A stretch of DNA of 64,000 bases from Saccostrea echinata (GCF_033153115.1 NW_026889751.1:31372001-31436000), one strand, 5' to 3'. Positions 52,301 through 64,000 are shown, counted from the stretch's first letter. Notes: generated by a model not told the origin, from the sequence alone. Made by a program: numbers and translations.

Positions 52301-52504
52301 TCTGTGCAATTTTTTTTCACTTAAAATCACTTTATTGTGAAACGGAGAATGAAAAATAAAAATCTATGAGGTCAAAATTATTTATTTTACTTATGTAAAA
52401 ACTTTTTACATAAGTAAAATAAATAATTTTGACATCATAGATTTTTATTTTTCATTCTCCGTTTCACAATAAAGTGATTTTAAGTGAAAAAAAAATTGCA
52501 CAGA
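52301..52504. repeat. Near-perfect 204-bp palindrome with a 1-nt spacer
   Basis: Arms of ~101 bp centred on C52402; one substitution and one homopolymer-length difference. Confidence 0.95.
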
Positions 52505-54382
52505 TTAATAAGGATGATTTCAGAGGATAGAATTTTAAATGTCATAGAAGGTTTACAATTTCTTAATACATGTATTTTAGAAATTTTAAATTCACATCAT
52601 TTACAACCTAAAAAGGTCCAAAAATATATACCAATCCAGGCGTCCATTTTTTTTTGTCTGTATCATCTGTCATTATGTCTTATGAATGCGCATCTTTAGC
52701 TTTTTTTAATAAATAACAATAAATGTAACCTTTGAGTAAATGTCAAGATTAAAGGGCAGATCCACAGGCGTGGTGATCCAGGAGGTTCGAACTTATGAAT
52801 GTCTTAAGATCAAAGAAAGAGGTCATAATAAGAAAACTTTATAGAAAGATTTAAAACTAGCTAGAGGTTGTTACGTTCTAGAGCATAAGCATTGTAAATG
52901 GGATAGGGAGTTAGAGGGTTGTGAAAACTATACCTAGATACGTCTATGTGGCGACCCCCTCCCCCTCTATTGTATTCATAAAATCCTAGATCAGGCTAAT
53001 GAGATCAGCTTTACTGACTTTTTAGGGAATTAAGCTACGTGAATTTGAATTTCGGTAGTTAAACCTTCCGTTTTGTTTTTAATTGACAAAATAATGCAAA
53101 CCTCCCCTCCCATGCCGAAAAACTACCGGGGTATTAAGAAAAAAGTTCAAAGTGACCAGTTCCGCTTTATATATATACAAATAAATTCTGAAAACATTTT
53201 TTCTTCAACCAAACTTCTGTTTCCCGATTCGGAAATAGAAAAATCCACTGGCTGACTCTCTAAGCTTTTTTCAAAAGCTAAACTTGTGTAGCGAATGCGT
53301 TATAAATCCATTTATCACAGCGCCCCACGTGGAAGGATGCGCGCGCAATATATGCGCAGGCATTTGTACATTCCATTCTCACATCATTTCCAAATGTTGC
53401 ACGTTTAGGGTTTGCTGTGATTTTTTAAGAAAATTTAGAATATTGCACAATGACATTGTCAAAAGACTGTGGGTGTACAAAGACGAGGTTTTACTGATTG
53501 TTTGCACTAATTGTACCGTTAGTGTACCTCAACATGCTAGAGTTTTTGACTTCGCGCCGAAGGGCTGTAAGGAGCGTATGGACGTTAGCCGAGGCTCTTA
53601 CTTGTAGGAGTATTGTTGCTGTAAATATTGACCAAGATGTCCACAACATCTATAGTCGCCAAAGCCAAACAAGGCATTACAAAATGGAGAGAGAGAATAA
53701 CGTCAATACCAGCAATGAGGAGGACATGCATAATACTACTACACACAGCACAAACGGTATGTCATCTTGTATGCCTACATCAATTATTAGTATAATGTTT
53801 TCACTGTTGTTCCAATTACATTTTTAAAAAATGCACAAGAAAATACTAAATGTTCAGTTAATCGATCATTCTGTTAAAATCAGTGGGAAAAGGCAAAGAA
53901 TAAGCTAATCATTACAATTGGTTTTATTGTATTTAGTAGAATCTAAATTTAAGCACACCCCCTTCAACCACAGAGTTTAGAGCAATATAAATATAATTAT
54001 GCACACGTTAAGATTGGGTTCCATAAACTCCCATTGTCTTGAATTAATTTAACCTCATACTCTTAAGATCACGCACTCGGCATCGTCGGTCATTGTTCCG
54101 ATGTTGTAAGCGCCCGAGTATATACTTCATGGAGCCTTAATGTTATCGATATATGAGGCTCTAATAATAAGACTAATTTATTTATTCACCAATCAATGAG
54201 CTTTGAAAGGGGGGGGGGGGGGCATATATACAGTACCTGGCCATAATACAGTACGCAAAATGGCCGCCGTTATAAAAATATACGTGCACACTTGCAGTTT
54301 TGAATGTTGTTTTTTCAAATTGATATATAATAAAATTTATCCTACCTTACTAATACTTGGTTATGTAACCTTTTGCTTTTAT

Positions 54383-54546
54383 TTAAGGAATAACTGTCTA
54401 ATTTTTTGGATTCATGATGTGATCAATCGAGTGGCTTGCGTGATAATTTGCATAAACGCCGAAGGCGTTTATGCATAAAATTATCACGCAAGCCAATCGA
54501 TTGATCATCGTCATGAATCCAAAAAATCTGACAGTTATTCCTTATA
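54383..54546. repeat. Long imperfect hairpin (Crypton-like terminal palindrome) inserted in the Tc1
   Basis: taaggaataactgtc...gcataaacgcc gaa ggcgtttatgc...gacagttattcctta. Confidence 0.75.
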
Positions 54547-54729
54547 TTTACATGCTTCTGATTCTGCAAATTCCCGTGCTAACAGCCCCGCTTCTGTCTC
54601 TATTTGTCCCGCCCCGCACATGATTTTTTTTAACCGCGCCTATCGATGAACCAGTAGATTTATGTAGAAATAAAGTATTTTTACATTTTGTAATTTTATC
54701 TCGGACAAAGACATTGGAAATGTAAATAT

Positions 54730-55739
54730 TACAGCTTGTAATCGTGTTGGTATTGATATGTACAGTTTTCTAATCGTCTCCAAATCGATAGGGGCCCATA
54801 TGTCCTTCACAATACGCACTAGGTCTTCGCGTTTTTTAATTTCGTCCAGGCGATGTTCTAATCTGATCTTAATTGTCCTCCACACATTTTCAATTATGTT
54901 AATGTCTGGTGATTGACTAGGCCAGGTAAGTGTAGGGATGTTGTTTGTCGTTTTCCATTCAACCGTCTGTCTGGACTGGTGCACCGGACAATTATCCTCC
55001 TGTAGAATCCAGGGACTTGCAGGAAACTCTTTTGCAACAAGAGGCCACAAATTATAATCTAGGACCGAAATATATTTCTCGGAGTTTATATTTCCTTCTA
55101 CTTCAGTCAAAGTTCCAACACCATTAAAAGATAAACACCCCCAGAACATAGCCGATATGCCGGAGCGGGGCTAATGACTACTATACTGTCCAAGACAATC
55201 GGGTTGAAATCTTTCTCCAGGTTTTCTCCAGACGTAAATTTTTCTATCCTTTCCTAAAACAACTTTCATCTCATCACTAAAAATGACCTGACTCCAGTTT
55301 TCCTCCACTGTCCACCCTAATTTGGATCGACACCACAAAACACGGTTTTGACGATTTGGTTTCGAGATTGTTATTTTCTTTGAAACGGAGCATCTTTGAT
55401 ATTTCTGTTCTTTTAATCTCCTTCTTACAGTTCTATTAGACACTTTCTGTGGTACAGATTCATTAAATTTATCAGTTAAATCTGACAGAGTCTGTCGACG
55501 ATTTTTCTTTACCAACCTTGACAAGACGCGATCACCTCTTTCGCCCACGAATCGTTTTCTTCCCGGTCTTTCTCTGTTTTCCACGGAACCCCTTTCAGCA
55601 TTCGTTTTACAACCTTCTGTATGGAATTTGGACTTATTCCGATAATTTCCGAAATTTTCAGGCTACTTAAACCACTCTCATTCAATTTAATTATCGTCTG
55701 CTTTTGCTCGGGTGAAAGGTCTTTCCCCCTCGGAGCCAT
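54730..55739 (-). pseudogene. Tc1 DDE transposase with one frameshift and one stop; 3' end interrupted
   Basis: MAPRGKDLS HTH, RPGRKR, VIFSDE, MFWGC, LQEDN, WPSQSPDINIIENVW. Confidence 0.92.
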
Positions 55740-56061
55740 TTTGATTTACGTATGTTATGGTACTAAAAATAAATCTACGGAACTTCCTATGTGTGTGACG
55801 TCAGATATGACGTTCATGTATGGATGTGTGTAGTTGTCATTATTTTTTTATCATATTACAATCGATAAAATGAAGAGGAAAAACATTGTATGTTAATTTT
55901 AATTTTAACGGCGTCCATTTTGCGTACTNNNNNNNNNNNNNNNNNNNNNNNNNNNNNNNNNNNNNNNNNNNNNNNNNNNNNNNNNNNNNNNNNNNNNNNN
56001 NNNNNNNNNNNNNNNNNNNNNNNNNNNNNNNNNNNNNNNNNNNNNNNNNNNNNNNNNNNCA

Positions 56062-57260
56062 AGTAATGGCTGTATTACGTGCAATATTAACCTGATCCTC
56101 ACTTGTAATATTTAACTGTCCACGCTAGCATCCTTCATACAATTGAAAGACTAGTGTTTTGATGCCAAATATCGTTACTTATTGTGTATATATGTGCACA
56201 TTGTTATAAAATATGTATTTTAAGCTAGTTCTCCCTTCGATTAACATCTTCGTGTCCGTCCTCAACAAATCAGCAACCCCGGCCTGGGGAAACACTTTTT
56301 GAAACAGAAAACCTTAAATTTCGTTACTCCTACGCATTCAATTAATAAACATCGGTCATTCTTAAGTAAATGTTATAGTTTTAATTGCTGTGTTTGATTT
56401 ATATTGTCCTCGCTCAGCTAGTGAGGGTCCAAATATGAGCAACTTGTGTTCAGCCTCTGTATGCTGGCCTTAAAGGAAGACAAGTTGTATAAAAAGTTCA
56501 GATATTTTATTAACAAGAAACCGCAACTCAAATAAAAATCAAAGTAATAATTTAACAAAACATTCTGAAAATAAAAATATTAATAATTATGAACATTTAA
56601 ACTTTTTCTCTTTTTTACAGAATTCTGTTTCATAATAATTTTACAAAGCAGTTTCAAGTAAACAATTTATTAGCATTTCACCGATTCTAAAATGATGAAT
56701 ATACTTAGATATATATTTATACAATAAAACATACGTACCTTAAAGGAAGACAAGTTGTATAAAAAGTTCAGATATTTTATTAACAAGAAACCGCAACTGA
56801 GGTTGTCAGGGCGCGCACTGCCGTTTTATACCCCAGAACCGGTTTCCATGACATTTTCACAACTTGTCGACCTTTCCAGCACCCATGTGATAAGGATTCA
56901 TTCGGACAACACGCGACCATTGTTTTATGAGTAAATTAATTAAAATCTCAACTGACATATCTAATTCTTTATGCCTGGCCGGCTATATTCGTTTGATACG
57001 AAATATCTTATATGTCCGAATGATTGAATGTGTTTATGGTTACCGTGCCTGATCTATGTGTTACAGTTTATAAACAAAAGGAATACATGTCATGTTGACC
57101 TTCTTTACAATTGAACCAATTAATCTACTGCCTAACTCTGCACTTAAACCACAAACACATACGTGTAGTACAAAATAATGATAAAAATAGAAATAATCAG
57201 TGATATTAAATTATTAAGGTAAAAAATGAAAATAATACAAAAAATTCTATATTAATTACT
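56062..57260 (-). repeat. 3' LTR with AGTAAT...ATTACT termini
   Basis: Inverted hexamer termini; preceded by G-rich ACGGGCGCGGA; first ~60 nt repeated at 61517-61573; contains TATA box, initiator and AATAAA. Confidence 0.72.
56796..56830 (-). promoter_or_regulatory. LTR core promoter: TATAAAA plus TCAGT initiator
   Basis: Minus strand TATAAAA at 56830-56824 and TCAGTT with the A at 56798, 32 nt downstream. AATAAA follows ~17 nt later. Confidence 0.65.
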
Positions 57261-57912
57261 TCCGCGCCCGTAAAAATTTGGTGCTCCAAATTTAAATAAA
57301 ATTTACTCGAGTGCCCATAAAATATATTATATCATAACTCTTTCTTTTAAAACATAGAAAAACATAAAACATAATAGGATCAGTAATTGTGCATAAATGC
57401 ATAACATCTCACTAGGGAATTGTCACAAGAATTCACAGTTCACCACTATTAAAAGTTCACAATATTCACTGTTCGTATATTGTTTGTACAGTCACATAAG
57501 CAGAGTTTATGGATGAACACAGGTATTGCAACATCACACATTTTAATAAATTTTTGCGTAATCCTTTTTGGTAGCGTCAGTGAGAATTGTATGCAGTCTT
57601 TTTGGCACTCGGTCAATTGGATTTTGCACCTTGGGCGGGTTGTTATTCCATCATCAGTAGAAAGGTACATGAAATATATGAAAAATAATACAGTTAGTAC
57701 ATCTATGAAATCCTTGATTAAAATACATACATATAAAATCCTTATTTATATATATCGATATATATATCCTCACGATTCCGACTTCACCTCTCCAACAAAA
57801 TAATTGTTTATATGTTCTGCTCCAATTTAAAAAAATTACATGCAAATGTGACTATCATATAAAACAAACATGAAGATGAAAATGTTAAGTAAGCATTAGA
57901 AGACAAATGCAA

Positions 57913-60347
57913 TTAGGTTTTGTAATAATCAAGATATTTTTGGATATTTTGTGAAGGAAGCGGCATTGTTATATTTCCATGTTTCAACAATATGTATGCC
58001 ATATATGGTTGTTTCATAACTTGCTTGACTCGATAGCGATTAATCCATGAAAGTTTAGTACAGGGGGGAATTTCAATGGTTGAATATTGCAATTTGTTTG
58101 TAACTTTAAAATCTGTCCAGTCAGTAATCAGAATTCGCGAAGGCCAATCTTTAATGTACATATTTGAAATTGACGATGGTGGATTTATCTCGAGCAAGGA
58201 TGGACACAACGACAAGGAAAGCAGAGGAATTATAGCACAAGTAGTACCTGATGTAAGTTCCAGTATGATCGTTGTTCCACAACGATGACGCTTACTCATA
58301 TCAAGTAGTACTAAAACACAAGTGATGAAGATAAGAATGGAGAGAGCAAATATAACATGATCCCACTTCAAAGTGTCTTTAATTACATCCAAAATATGTG
58401 TCGGGTTTTCAGTAGTAGATTTGTGGAATATGTATTCATTTCCCAAAGCTTTGGTGTATGGTGTTTGTTTTAAAACAGAAATTATGAACAAAAGTTTTCT
58501 TTGTCTGATAAATAATAATCCACAAATCAGAGATATAGTTATTGCAATGACAAAAGAAATATAAGTTAAAACATCATTGGTAGTAGGCCAATCAGAATTT
58601 AAATCAATATCTCCATTTAACAGAGGTTCTGACAGTGACTGAAAAATTTTCTCATTACGTTTGGTAGCATCAGCCATTTTTTTCATGTTGAAATGAAGTC
58701 GGGAATCTGCAACTAACCGTTTCTGAAAATCATGCTTATAAATTTCAAATCCAGGAATCTTGACAGTTAAAGACGAAGCAAATGTGCTGTCCGCTTGCAA
58801 AGCCAGTAATTTTGAGTCATTAAAGAATTGTTGCAATAATGCCAAATTAACAGGATGAAATACTTGAACATTTGAATGTACTTGACATTTGACTAGTCTA
58901 GGTGGTAGATACCAAAATTTTGTGGTAATCGAACATCTGCAAGGTAATTGTATCATGCACATCGAACATCCATGCAAAATTGATTTATTGTTAGGGCAAT
59001 CTATGACCAGGTTATAACTGTTGTAAATTAACGTGGAGCCTGCAGATAATTCTATGGCGGTGGGGTTTAGTAAATTTTGTTGAAACCTGAAATTACACAA
59101 TTCATTAACAGCTTTTTAACATTGGCAAACAAACTCATAATGCAAGATTTCTGAGTGACCGGCATGAGCGCTTTGTTTAAATTACAAAGATAGAGTTGGT
59201 GTTTGTGACATGTTGCCATGTCATTCTTATCCAAAAGTAAATAGTATTGTTGATGTGATGTAATGGCTAAGTAGTTTGGTAAGTCTAGTAATTGCGTAGC
59301 ATGAGTGGACGTTTCATTTACAGGTACTGGCATGGATATTACTTGATATAGTCGGAGAGGATGTTTTTTCATGAGAGAGTGGAAATTTTAGTGTAATGTA
59401 TATTGCACCAAAACGTCTCCCAAATGCAAATTGACCATGCTTATAATAATATTCTGGATCCTTAAATGTTAGATAAAAATTAGAATACTCTTCTGTGAGG
59501 ATTTTAGAAATTTCTTTAATTGTTTTTGTGATTATTGGTGTAGAAATAAGTATTGGTGAAAGTTTTCCTTCAATTAGATTACTTAACGAATTCTTGAAAG
59601 CAGAGTATTGATTTACCAATTTATGAGAATCTTCTAAATGTGAATTATAAAGTTCCGAAAGTTTGAGAAGTCCGTCTTGAAAATTCTGAATTTGTTCAGT
59701 TATAACTTGTGATAGGTTTGTGATAGCCAAAAAGTTTTGTTTTACATTTTCCTGAATGTTGTCAAATCTGTTGTTCGTTGCTGTCATAAATGAGGAAAAT
59801 TGATGCGATTGCATTTTGATAAATTTAGTAACTTGAATGTTATTTTTGATAAGGGAATTAACATGTTCTTTGAGGATGTTTACATCTTCCATAGTCGCTG
59901 TGCCAAACAAAGTTTTAGATAAGTCCCCAACAAAGGACAAGAGAGATTTCTTTTGTCTGTTTGAAATATGAATAAATGGTACATTGTCATCAAGAAATTC
60001 ATATGTATGATTAAATTCTGAAAACGTGCGCGAATCCAAATCTTCAATTTGGTGTATAAACCTAGTAAAACTCAAACAAGCTTTTGTTGGGAGAGTGATA
60101 CAGTCATACTTAAGGTTTGATTTTTGAGGTAATTTTGGGAGTACAATTTCATATGTTTGTCTCCAATACTCATTTGTTAAAACTAAACTTTTTTCACCTT
60201 TAAACACAACACCGTAATTAAGCCGTTGCATTGAGTTTGGAATGATCAGGGGACGGGACCCTTGCATTTCTATCCCAATTACCGACACATGGAACAATCC
60301 GCTCCATAACATCATCACCATTAATAGAATTGTGGGCCATCGAATTT
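57913..60347 (-). pseudogene. env: Envelope glycoprotein, class I F-type fusogen, two frameshifts
   Basis: Signal peptide WPTILLMVMMLWSGLFHVSVIG; QRLNYGVVF; RQKK|SLLSFVGDLSKTLFGTAT (cleavage site and fusion peptide); heptad region; Cys-rich C-terminal half; hydrophobic segments VLTYISFVIAITISLICGLLFI and HVIFALSILIFITCVLVLL. Confidence 0.85.
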
Positions 60348-60511
60348 CTACAAATAGACGAAAGAGAAAAAAATTAGTGGTGTTCATTCAAAATGTGTTG
60401 ATCAGGCACAAGTTGAACCACTTTATTTTAGAAAAAGGTCCAAAGTGAAAAAAAAAATATTTTAGTGGAGATTCTAAAGCACACGATTTTTAATGGATTT
60501 ATGATAATAAT

Positions 60512-61516
60512 TTATGGTTTTTTAAGCGTGGAAGGAAATTTGCTCTGCCTCCCTTGTTTTGTATGTGTCACAAAGTATTCCCGTATTAGTTCTTGGCTTA
60601 AATTATCTTCTGGTTCCCAAGATTTACTTCCATCTTCCCACTTTACATAAAATTCCCTCTTACCTGCCCGTTTCCTGAGCTTGATAAGTTTATCGACTGG
60701 ATAATATGTATTATCTTGCTCGTTGTCAACATTGTTATCAGGGAGGACATTAAAATTCTCCCGATCAGGTGCAATAGTTTCTTGATTACAATTACCTACC
60801 TCATCAAACAATCTGCCAATATCCTGCTCAGGATATTGATCTCTGATGTCTGTACCTGGCATGTAATCTTTTAATCTACTTGCATTTACGTAAGACTTCA
60901 ATTCATTGTGATTTGAACACTTTCGTAGTTTGTAAGTAAAATTTGGTCCTATTTCAGAAATGTAATATGGACCATCATATTTGTCAATGAGTTTAGGTGA
61001 TTTACCTACTGGGGTTTTAAATTGCTGTAAAAGAACCATTTGATTTAATCTGAACTCAGGCTCTTTAGCTCGCGCATCAAATCTTTCTTTAGATTTCGCT
61101 TGTTTTATCGCGATGTTTTCGTTAGCTAACTCATGCGTGATTTTCAAATTTTCAAGAATGTCGCGAATATGCTCTTTAGCGTCTGGTTGTAGCGCGTCTT
61201 TCGGTGTTACTCGAAGATCAAAAGGCAAATTCATTTCTCGACCAAAAGTCATATAGTACGGAGAATGATCCGTAGATTGAGTGCACGGCGAATTTCTTAA
61301 AGCCATTAAAATACCAGGAATCAGTTTTGGCCAATTGTTTTGCTCCTTATCGGTATAAGCTCGAATAGCTTGTAAAATCGTACGATTATTACGTTCACAA
61401 AAACTATTTGTCTGCGGATGATACGCTGACGTGAAATGTTTTTTGACATTGAAAATTTCACAAAGGGACAAAATGAGATTTGATGTAAATTGTTTTCCTA
61501 AGTCAGACACTAATTT
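60512..61516 (-). pseudogene. Integrase C-terminal half with GPY module and chromodomain
   Basis: VSDLGKQFTS, TSAYHPQTNSFCERNNRT, SPYYMTFGRE, KYDGPY; chromodomain YPVDKLIKLRKRAGKREFYVKWEDGSKSWEPEDNL at ~60570-60706. Confidence 0.9.
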
Positions 61517-64000
61517 CAGTGGTATTAAATTATTAAGGTAAAAAATGAAAATAATACAAAAAATTCTATATTATAAATATTAAACTACTTCCAATATTTA
61601 TGCATGTCATGTTCCACCAAAGCAAGAATTAGGCGATGAGTTGAGAAATGGTTTTAATTTAATTTAGGGCGCATGGAGTGAAGAGCAAATTAATTAATTA
61701 ATTAATTGAAATTAATTTCAGTAGATCTGTATCAAGACAAATTCAGAATATGTTGCTGATTGAAATAGCTATGGGCGAATGGCTGTTCCATTTTCCTTAA
61801 CACCTCTATCAAAACTAGGCCCATAAATCATGGAGGGGGATCAATATCCACATAACAATAAACCCAAAAATTTTATAGATTGAGGGCCATAATCGGTATG
61901 ATAGCACCATTAATAAGATCTTTACCTGGCAAAATGGATACAAAAAATCGTTTTTGGACTATTGTCTAGAAAACCAGATGATTTTTTGCGTACTTGGCTT
62001 CGAATAACTACTATGTCAAACGCCTTCCATTTGTTGTTACACATCGTCACAAATAAATAAAATAATAAAGTGATTAATAAATTAATTAAACACAAATGAA
62101 ATATTATCTTTTTTCAATGGGTCGTCAGGTCACAACCTGGTTCGAAATACGAAACGCATTTATTTATCTTGATGTCTTTCTATTGTGCAAGTTCAGCTCA
62201 CGCCAACATTTGCTCAAAATTGATGACACGTTTGGCGATTTTGGTCAGCATTGGGAATTCTTCAATGCGTTGAACATTTGTTCCCGTCACAAAAGTTAAT
62301 TCATCTGGGTTTGGAAATTGATACATGTCAAGTTTGTATTCTGACGAAAAGCTAATTAAACCTAAGATTTTGCTGATAGGAAGGGCCAATAAATCTTAAA
62401 AGTCACTTCAAATGATATGCAATTCTTTCAGTGCCGTCTTACCGCGCTGTTGCCAGCGTTCCCACGATGCAATGATTTGCATAAAAAATGCAGCAACTTT
62501 TCATTTGTATAAAGACCATTTGTTTTTATGTCATTTAAATTTTGAATCACTTTATATTTATTTCTTTACGATATGGCTGATTAAGCAGTAATATTCTTTA
62601 GCTTAGCACGGTAAGCGCAGACGGAAGGCATACTGGCTGCGGGAAAGCCAGCATATGGTTATACAACTATAATTGTAGTAAAGTTATTTTGGTTACGATT
62701 AGATCACACAACTTTATAAACAGACGTCAAAATATGTAAGATCTATACAGTTTGATTTGATGTTTAGTATATTTATAAATGACTTATACACGTTTTTAGA
62801 TTTTACCTTATTAAATTGAGATCTCCATCTTAAAATTACTTGATCACACTTCACATGTTATCATCACGGAAGTACTATTTCATTTATCAACATTACTTAC
62901 ATATACAGTGTCAAATTTTACAACATACAAATACATGTATAGATTATTTAGTATGTATACACATAAATTGTTTGTACTGTTTGTAATTGTAGAAATCATG
63001 CTTGTTGTTTGTGATGCCTGAAAGGGCCCTGATTTGGAAATAAAGAATCTTACCTACCATACTATCATCATCAATAAATAAATAAATAAATAAATAGTGT
63101 ATTCCATCTCATGTTCTCATTAATGTTAATATGTATCCAACAGTAGATAATTAACTATCTTTAGTAAGAAAACCTTTTTATACTAAGCACTTTAGGTTTA
63201 AACTCGGCATTGCATAAGTAGAACCTCGTTATATAAAACGAGTACTTTCATCATGTAGATGTTAAACTGCAGGGGGGGGGGGGGGGGGCAGTAGGGTAAA
63301 GAGACACAGTTACTCTCTGTATTGTTAATTATTAGTCATACACCATTGTTTACGAATCAGAGCAAACATTCCTGATAATTTATTATTTATATTAACCTTA
63401 AACTAGATTGTTGCGTCTCAATATAAATATATGCACTATACATGTAAATTATATTCTTTTAGAACTTGAAAAGCTACTTACTTTCATGCGAATCAATTCA
63501 ATTACTTGGAAGAGAACAGTTTAAATGTTATCATTCATAGATTATAAACCCTGCAGTTCAATAGATTAAGAAAGACATTTGAACTTTTTCTCTAGATATT
63601 TGGTACATCTGTTCATTTTAATCACAGGCTTCTATAGCAGTAAATTTTAGTATGTTGTAACAAAGCAAGAGAGGAATGTGCTAGAATGGGGTTCCTAATC
63701 CGATATTCTATTGCGGGGCAAATGACCTTGGCTGTGTAAAGATATGCATTGATAAAACTGCCGAATCCTTAAATAGTTCAGTAAACTATAGGGTCGTTTC
63801 CAGATGTGATGGGAAGTTCGATCAGGAAAAAGATCGCAAAAGTAATTAACTCAGTTACCAAGCATAATTAATCTAGTTACAACAGAGGATATTTTATATA
63901 TACAATTCTTCTGGCAGTAAGCTAAAATTTTTAAAAAGCGGGCTTAAAAGCATAGTGAACTGCCAACTTGATTTAATATTATCATTTATAGTAGTAGTAG

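Follow-up and report, generated by a model that had tools for sequence, protein, structure and literature searches.

Insect errantiviruses such as Drosophila gypsy and ZAM carry an F-type env 3′ of pol, have LTRs with AGT-type ends, and generate 4-bp target-site duplications (TSDs); we know of no insect errantivirus with a chromodomain. Chromodomains are found in chromoviruses, where they follow the GPY/SH3 module of the integrase. An operational definition treats all env-containing Ty3/gypsy elements as errantiviruses (Chary & Hayashi, PMC13524379), and the main text of that article describes a Cnidaria/Mollusca/Annelida errantivirus clade with chromodomains that is basal to the known chromoviruses. 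In the same article, 12 of the 19 molluscan entries tested positive for a chromodomain, and ENV_F was present in 11 of these 12, including all nine bivalves. The “ancient errantiviruses” are described there as having an RNase H and a “mini” domain bridge, a region that is deleted at the locus reported here.

The window, i.e. the whole stretch of 64,000 nt that was analysed, contains on its minus strand, like all features below, an internally deleted Ty3/gypsy copy with a chromodomain integrase and a frameshifted F-type env, inserted into a host repeat with a 4-bp duplication. It probably belongs to the published mollusc-annelid-cnidarian clade of “ancient errantiviruses”. Features by which errantiviruses are recognised in PMC13524379 are present, i.e. 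an env after pol that is of the F type (F-type or gB-type in that definition), LTRs and, in relatives, the pol order and a PBS-like sequence, and the chromodomain lies C-terminal to the integrase, as in the Cnidaria/Mollusca/Annelida clade. Members of this clade, e.g. Cari_2, Cari_4, Csin_3, Dpol_2 and Mare_1, have the same Ty3/gypsy pol, chromodomain after the integrase, F-type env and long LTRs. The preliminary description of the locus had left open whether the family was catalogued; the combination of chromodomain and F-type env, seen in nine bivalve entries, is already published, so that the window copy adds only a further member, and the structures at the ends of the element matter more.

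The integrase is represented by its C-terminal half (60512-61515), with a remnant of the DDE core and the previously noticed GPY motif at 60973. The matches to rve_3 (E = 0.003) and SH3_Tf2-1 (E = 0.057) are both below the Pfam cut-off, and the same region is 86% alike to an unbroken public pol protein of 1313 aa with RT, RNase H, IN and Chromo domains. The chromodomain that had been proposed at the integrase end was recovered by Pfam at 60575-60700 (PF00385, E = 1.3e-7, 31.8 bits versus a cut-off of 25.1), and its best PDB sequence match is HP1 (1kna, E = 3.3e-7). The position after the GPY/SH3 module is the same as in chromoviruses; in contrast to these, the element carries an env and its methyl-lysine cage is incomplete. 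The methyl-lysine cage of HP1 consists of three aromatic residues, two of which, the first Tyr and the Trp, have counterparts here, whereas a three-residue gap takes the place of the third. Among ten aligned integrase tails, the W-W-P motif is invariant, and two keep this third aromatic residue (W-L-G-Y). A likely and plausible role of the chromodomain is to tether integration complexes to chromatin, and the lineage may be chromatin-targeting as suggested before; reading of methylated H3K9 is doubtful for the window family, its chance being somewhat short of even.

The element had initially been delimited at 56062 and 61589, with AGT...ACT LTR ends, and AGT termini had been named as typical of insect errantiviruses. 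An AGT at 61589 and an ACT at 56062 are indeed present, and an F-type env is common to insect errantiviruses; however, both trinucleotides lie inside a high-copy host repeat of at least 2.8 kb, whose left arm (61578-63084, ~98% alike to five other copies) and right arm (56062-56366) are outside the element. A genome search with 56062-57300 was split in two at this border: LTR copies match up to 56371, where their homology ends, and another repeat matches beyond it. For 24 of the 42 matches the coverage is restricted to 56062-56375, representing this separate high-copy repeat. Both flanks, the left one as far as the point of insertion, are matched at ~98% by five other copies of the host repeat. 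In this empty-site comparison the two matching parts overlap by 4 bp, which places the element at 56371-61573, with TA...CA ends (TAATATAG...CTATAACA) and the TSD TTTA at 61574-61577 (5′) and 56367-56370 (3′). The complete 3′ LTR (56371-57254, 884 bp) has the same two ends and is 97-98% alike to seven genomic LTR copies. Perfect 4-bp TSDs flank TA...CA ends also in three independent solo LTRs among these seven (two loci sharing a flank were counted once); one of the others has a TSD matching at three of four positions, and another two lack the appearance of solo LTRs. The AGT...ACT ends are thus ruled out by the empty-site comparison, and an insect-type errantivirus with such termini that acquired a chromodomain is highly improbable. 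The element shares the F-type env and the 4-bp TSD with insect errantiviruses and differs from them in its chromodomain and its TA...CA ends. An apparent bias of insertions toward repeats was noticed.

Upstream of the 3′ LTR, at a distance of 4 nt, lies a purine-rich tract (57259-57269) that is predicted to be the polypurine tract. On the opposite side, only the first 58 bp of the 5′ LTR are left (61516-61573, 98% alike to 57197-57254). A 6-nt microhomology marks the junction between LTR base 58 and the integrase, in agreement with the large deletion noted earlier, by which the remaining 5′ LTR sequence, the PBS, gag and the greater part of pol were lost.

The window copy arose by deletion and lies within another repeat, so that its parts, i.e. 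a piece of a chromovirus, a glycoprotein gene of viral origin and an LTR, might have been brought together by chance. An env query gave 62 matches among 98 genome candidates, and 20 regions around env matches were fetched. Ten of these contain open frames for gag, pol (at least 1300 aa) and env (at least 797 aa), with chromodomain integrase, F-type env and LTR in the same order, and the LTR pairs are at least 99% alike over at least 1.1 kb in eight of the 20. Over the integrase, the env and the 3′ region, the nearest genomic copy is 79% alike to that of the window. This recurring linkage rules out a chance juxtaposition, the probability of which is negligible, and shows that the three parts form one element, of which unbroken relatives exist, as had been anticipated. 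Pfam Chromo is above the cut-off in four of 12 pol pieces of relatives, near it in two and missed in six, and Baculo_F is above the cut-off in four of the nine envs of relatives, which align at ~35%.

The order protease-RT-RNase H-integrase is seen in the relatives L088 and L090, of which the window keeps only the integrase half. All 14 relatives compared have an in-frame gag-TAG-GGR-pol junction, and Pol would very likely be made by UAG readthrough. A PBS-like sequence starting with TGG is found in relatives 2-3 nt after the 5′ LTR. The primer may be tRNA-Ala; a search for the primer tRNA with one pattern found nothing, and a looser pattern found two places. Some of the entries shown in PMC13524379 have a mismatched tRNA-Ala-type PBS ending, as do the relatives of the window element. 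None of the 98 env candidates is an unbroken member of the window's own family, and its three near copies are broken; an unbroken pol at 84-86% occurs in public contigs. Codon comparison with the nearest genomic copy gives mostly synonymous differences (synonymous/non-synonymous 61/15, 87/56 and 80/39) and shows that the lineage has been under purifying selection. Except for a few metagenome-bin labels, the homologues that carry a name come from bivalves and one limpet; the host is thus likely a mollusc and may be a bivalve, as proposed before.

The env (57913-60321) is distributed over three frames and contains heptad helices and a cysteine-rich region. Its proposed length of ~800 codons is borne out by an unbroken public protein of 800 aa, to residues 1-799 of which the window positions 60312-57919 align at 72%, and the two suspected frameshifts are located near 59370 and 59110. 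Several features ascribed to the protein were found again, i.e. a signal-like N-terminus, a motif of a fusion peptide at 59946 and, as predicted transmembrane segments, two strongly hydrophobic helices (58563-58507 and 58359-58303). The first of these is predicted to anchor the F ectodomain. The furin consensus ends in Arg. The basic cleavage site was confirmed in part: a basic RQKK precedes the fusion peptide, but it is without the final Arg of this consensus, whereas R-x-x-R is present at this site in five of the seven unbroken relatives tabulated.

The first env frame matches Baculo_F (PF12259) above the cut-off (E = 6.8e-7). The env of an unbroken relative was modelled with a pLDDT of 61.7 and a pTM of 0.37. 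A fold search with this model, of the kind proposed in the preliminary description, gave pneumo- and paramyxovirus F proteins as all of the PDB matches listed (best E = 1.2e-9), with TM-scores near 0.2. With the whole env, F-like glycoproteins of an abalone herpesvirus (A0A145VUZ2) and of chu-related viruses rank highest in a search of predicted viral structures (E = 2e-26 to 1e-22, with only 11-16% identity), and baculovirus F comes next. Because of the fold search and the Baculo_F match, the prediction that env encodes a class I F-type fusogen is well supported. The lineage may be infectious, as suggested before.

Between the two helices lies a predicted internal segment resembling a signal peptide, i.e. 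basic, hydrophobic and small-x-small (58447-58506). The pattern was found in 48 of 53 homologues with a regular expression that was written after the data had been seen and that has no null expectation. It is followed by a conserved beta-rich C-terminal domain of ~110 aa (57916-58275), which has a weak structural likeness to matrix proteins of Mononegavirales (Borna M, NDV M, VP40). By sequence, alignments of 11 and 50 rows of this domain gave no match in Pfam or PDB, and no usable match was found in the Atlas. A profile of it matches 604 representatives, and those named ones that were looked up are mollusc proteins. A search with this domain alone is topped by chu-related glycoproteins (E = 0.01-0.06).

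Env could be a polyprotein from which signal peptidase releases a class I fusogen and a small protein anchored in the membrane, which we consider somewhat probable, and the cytoplasmic domain of the latter may, tentatively, act as a matrix scaffold. Drosophila errantiviruses are described to spread from soma to germline by means of env. The env of the window family might likewise serve only for spread between cells of one animal, and its C-terminal domain would then be a lumenal or extracellular accessory unrelated to matrix proteins. This has nearly even chances: the congruence of pol, env and host described in the main text of PMC13524379 and two near-invariant cysteines in the C-terminal domain are compatible with it, and the two strong helices alone would place the domain on the lumenal side. 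In contrast, the third, signal-like hydrophobic segment is conserved, and Mononegavirales matrix proteins occupy eight of the top 11 rows of a wide structure search with the domain. If real, a matrix-like env domain would tie the envelope module to negative-strand RNA viruses and would bear on the origin of F-type env.

LTR elements must avoid polyadenylation in the 5′ LTR and must offer defined ends to the integrase. The window LTR contains two identical copies of a 60-nt segment. R1 (56739-56798), in which AATAAA is found, begins with an initiator-like TCAGTT and reaches to a splice donor, AAG|GTACGT; a TATA box (56824-56830) lies ~25 nt upstream of it. R2 (56469-56528) is not followed by a donor and ends in a pyrimidine tract and AG, so that an intron of 270 nt (56469-56738) is predicted from the GT after R1 to the end of R2. 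An R1/R2 pair was identified in 14 of the 17 regions examined, and three had none. Eleven families with differing R sequences were compared. In all of them GT follows R1, R ends in a pyrimidine tract and AG, a crude donor score favours the site after R1 over the one after R2, and a YCANTY motif is seen by eye at the left edge of R; the R1-R2 spacing ranges from 231 to 1154 nt. AATAAA is located within R in ten families. Eight near-identical LTRs were compared, and three had one substitution in both R copies, never in one alone.

The sequence pattern suggests the following cycle for an unbroken element, which we regard as fairly probable. Transcription would start at R1 of the 5′ LTR, and splicing of the cap-proximal LTR intron would rid the 5′ end of R2 and of the poly(A) signal in it. 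In the 3′ LTR, transcription would continue past R1, and polyadenylation would take place in R2. The strong-stop DNA of the minus strand (U5 and R) would then be transferred to R2, rebuilding U3-R1-intron-R2-U5, and R2 would be rewritten from exon 1 in each cycle, which would keep R1 and R2 identical.

Alternatively, R1 and R2 could be an old duplication that is kept identical by template switching and has no role in splicing, or the functional splice could use an acceptor upstream of R2. A TATA box is present in only three of the 11 families, and the window and its nearest copy do have a further acceptor upstream of R2, which allows this rival splicing pattern. However, initiator-like motif and GT donor coincide with the repeat edges in all 11 families despite differing R sequences and spacings, and the only family without AATAAA in R has it solely just upstream of R2, which makes these alternatives unlikely. 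Five runs guessed to be RNA contain part of a sister family as contigs. Four of these contig sets were compared over the 5′ region of the sister family and contained no splice joint; because contigs are blind to transcript starts and ends, and an R1-to-U5 splice reads like genomic R2-U5, this is no evidence for or against the predicted splicing. A duplicated R around an intron in 11 diverged families would be a distinct and testable answer to the problem of 5′ LTR polyadenylation.

The main text of PMC13524379 does not contain “splic-”, “target site”, “polypurine”, “matrix”, “readthrough” or “frameshift”; the R1-intron-R2 LTR, the TA/CA/AA ends, the readthrough junction and the env tail are thus undescribed there. 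The LTR intron, the matrix-like tail and an inversion of the U3 tip in sister families were not found in the literature searched, a partial set with most subscription journals, Repbase and Dfam outside its scope, and they are undescribed in the parts consulted of PMC12440569, PMC10886601 and 10.1101/2024.03.25.586562. Within this scope the three features are apparently new, and a predicted intron that separates RNA start from RNA end within an LTR looks unreported.

The inversion was seen in two sister lineages, in which 11 of 12 distinct 5′ LTR starts of integrated copies have an inverted U3 tip, comprising its first ~52 bp. One of these lineages and the window lie together in a supported integrase clade (99/98) of a tree of 62 of 100 sequences that comprised genome copies and database matches and left out three sequences without a long core match as well as lower-ranked database matches. 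The window's own family does not flip. The RNA inherits U3 from the 3′ LTR, so that the flip arises anew at each insertion. Its outer end is precise and its inner junction ragged. This fits an integrase that acts at an internal site in inverted orientation, after which the host joins the ends, and fold-back by reverse transcriptase is a rival. With a flipped U3 tip, the two LTRs of a new insertion are not identical, contrary to the usual rule, and both LTR dating and annotation based on TG...CA would be misled.

It seems unlikely that all parts of a joint reading hold together, i.e. that the LTR intron separates the R1 start from R2 polyadenylation and strand transfer, that env combines a fusogen with a membrane-anchored Mononegavirales-type matrix domain as a module common to chu-related viruses, and that in at least two sister lineages the integrase uses an internal inverted attachment site, flipping the first ~52 bp of U3 per insertion and shedding palindromic mini-insertions of ~100 bp. 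A hairpin at the U3 tip was rejected as the sole cause of the flip, being weak in the flipping families (10-11 of 200 shuffles) and present likewise in two families that do not flip (9 and 12 of 200). The same U3 segments form palindromes of 90-108 bp with TG...CA ends and 4-bp TSDs, and by way of the flip MITE-like palindromes could arise from an LTR element.

In two sister lineages related to the window's element, the 5′ LTR opens with ~52 bp that are the reverse complement of the ~52 bp adjoining the polypurine tract in the 3′ LTR of the same element. The loci with this inverted tip of U3, the first part of the LTR, in the genome searched for relatives (G000; loci L091-L130, L149, and L150) include C9:43.90M, C40:2.79M, C42:5.50M, C85:0.40M, C6:7.33M, C25:21.82M, C4:0.49M, and C14:10.83M (contig and Mb position). 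The inverted segment starts with TG and has the target-site duplication (TSD) outside it, while its junction with the remaining U3 is variable. The inversion is present in 11 of the 12 distinct 5′ LTR starts of the sister lineages in this genome, a count that leaves out five internal or tandem junction rows. At C25:1.72M, the inverted piece matches its own element at 100%, versus 92% when compared with C9. On the integrase tree (62 sequences, i.e. copies from G000 and database matches), the character requires two changes, with the states of C38 and C17 assigned by family. The inversion is absent from the window's own family. It is likely to arise via a putative internal inverted attachment site and end-joining.

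Eleven further loci (L131-L141) are palindromic insertions of 90-108 bp, which consist of two segments of the inverted U3 type arranged head to head, with the ends TG...CA. For the 10 of these 11 that were parsed, the 4-bp TSD is perfect in six cases and agrees at three of the four bases in the other four.

Among relatives in G000, the LTR ends differ between families (TA...CA, TA...TA, TG...TA, TG...AA, and TG...CA), and relatives with both flanks intact have TSDs of 4 bp. Together, these sequence features suggest that end recognition is relaxed in these relatives. In 14 of 14 relatives, the terminal TAG of gag is followed by an in-frame GGA or GGG and pol, and thus the gag-pol junction is probably passed by stop-codon readthrough. 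The env frames of L073, L077, and L079 have no methionine upstream of the signal-like segment, suggestive of a spliced env start; an acceptor-like TTTGTAG is found at 60348-60354 of the window.

When the predicted model of a relative's unbroken env was compared with predicted viral structures, the top match to the whole env was an uncharacterised 801-aa protein of abalone herpesvirus (E 2e-26, 16% identity), and glycoproteins of chu-related viruses ranked below it.

Several relatives (L011, L038/L039, L045, L023, and L046) lie inside or adjoin other repeats, which include tandem repeats, a TA microsatellite, and genes with a putative resemblance to Maverick/Polinton capsid genes. The window's element is itself inserted into a high-copy repeat (56062-56366 and 61578-63084) of at least 2.8 kb, the copies of which are 98-99% alike. 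The window also contains a broken Tc1/mariner transposon (54250-55928) with 26-nt inverted ends and with DDE_3 and HTH_Tnp_Tc3_2 above the cut-off, as well as near-perfect, MITE-like inverted repeats (52310-52494 and 54381-54547) with arms of 92 nt and nested arms of 37 and 30 nt.
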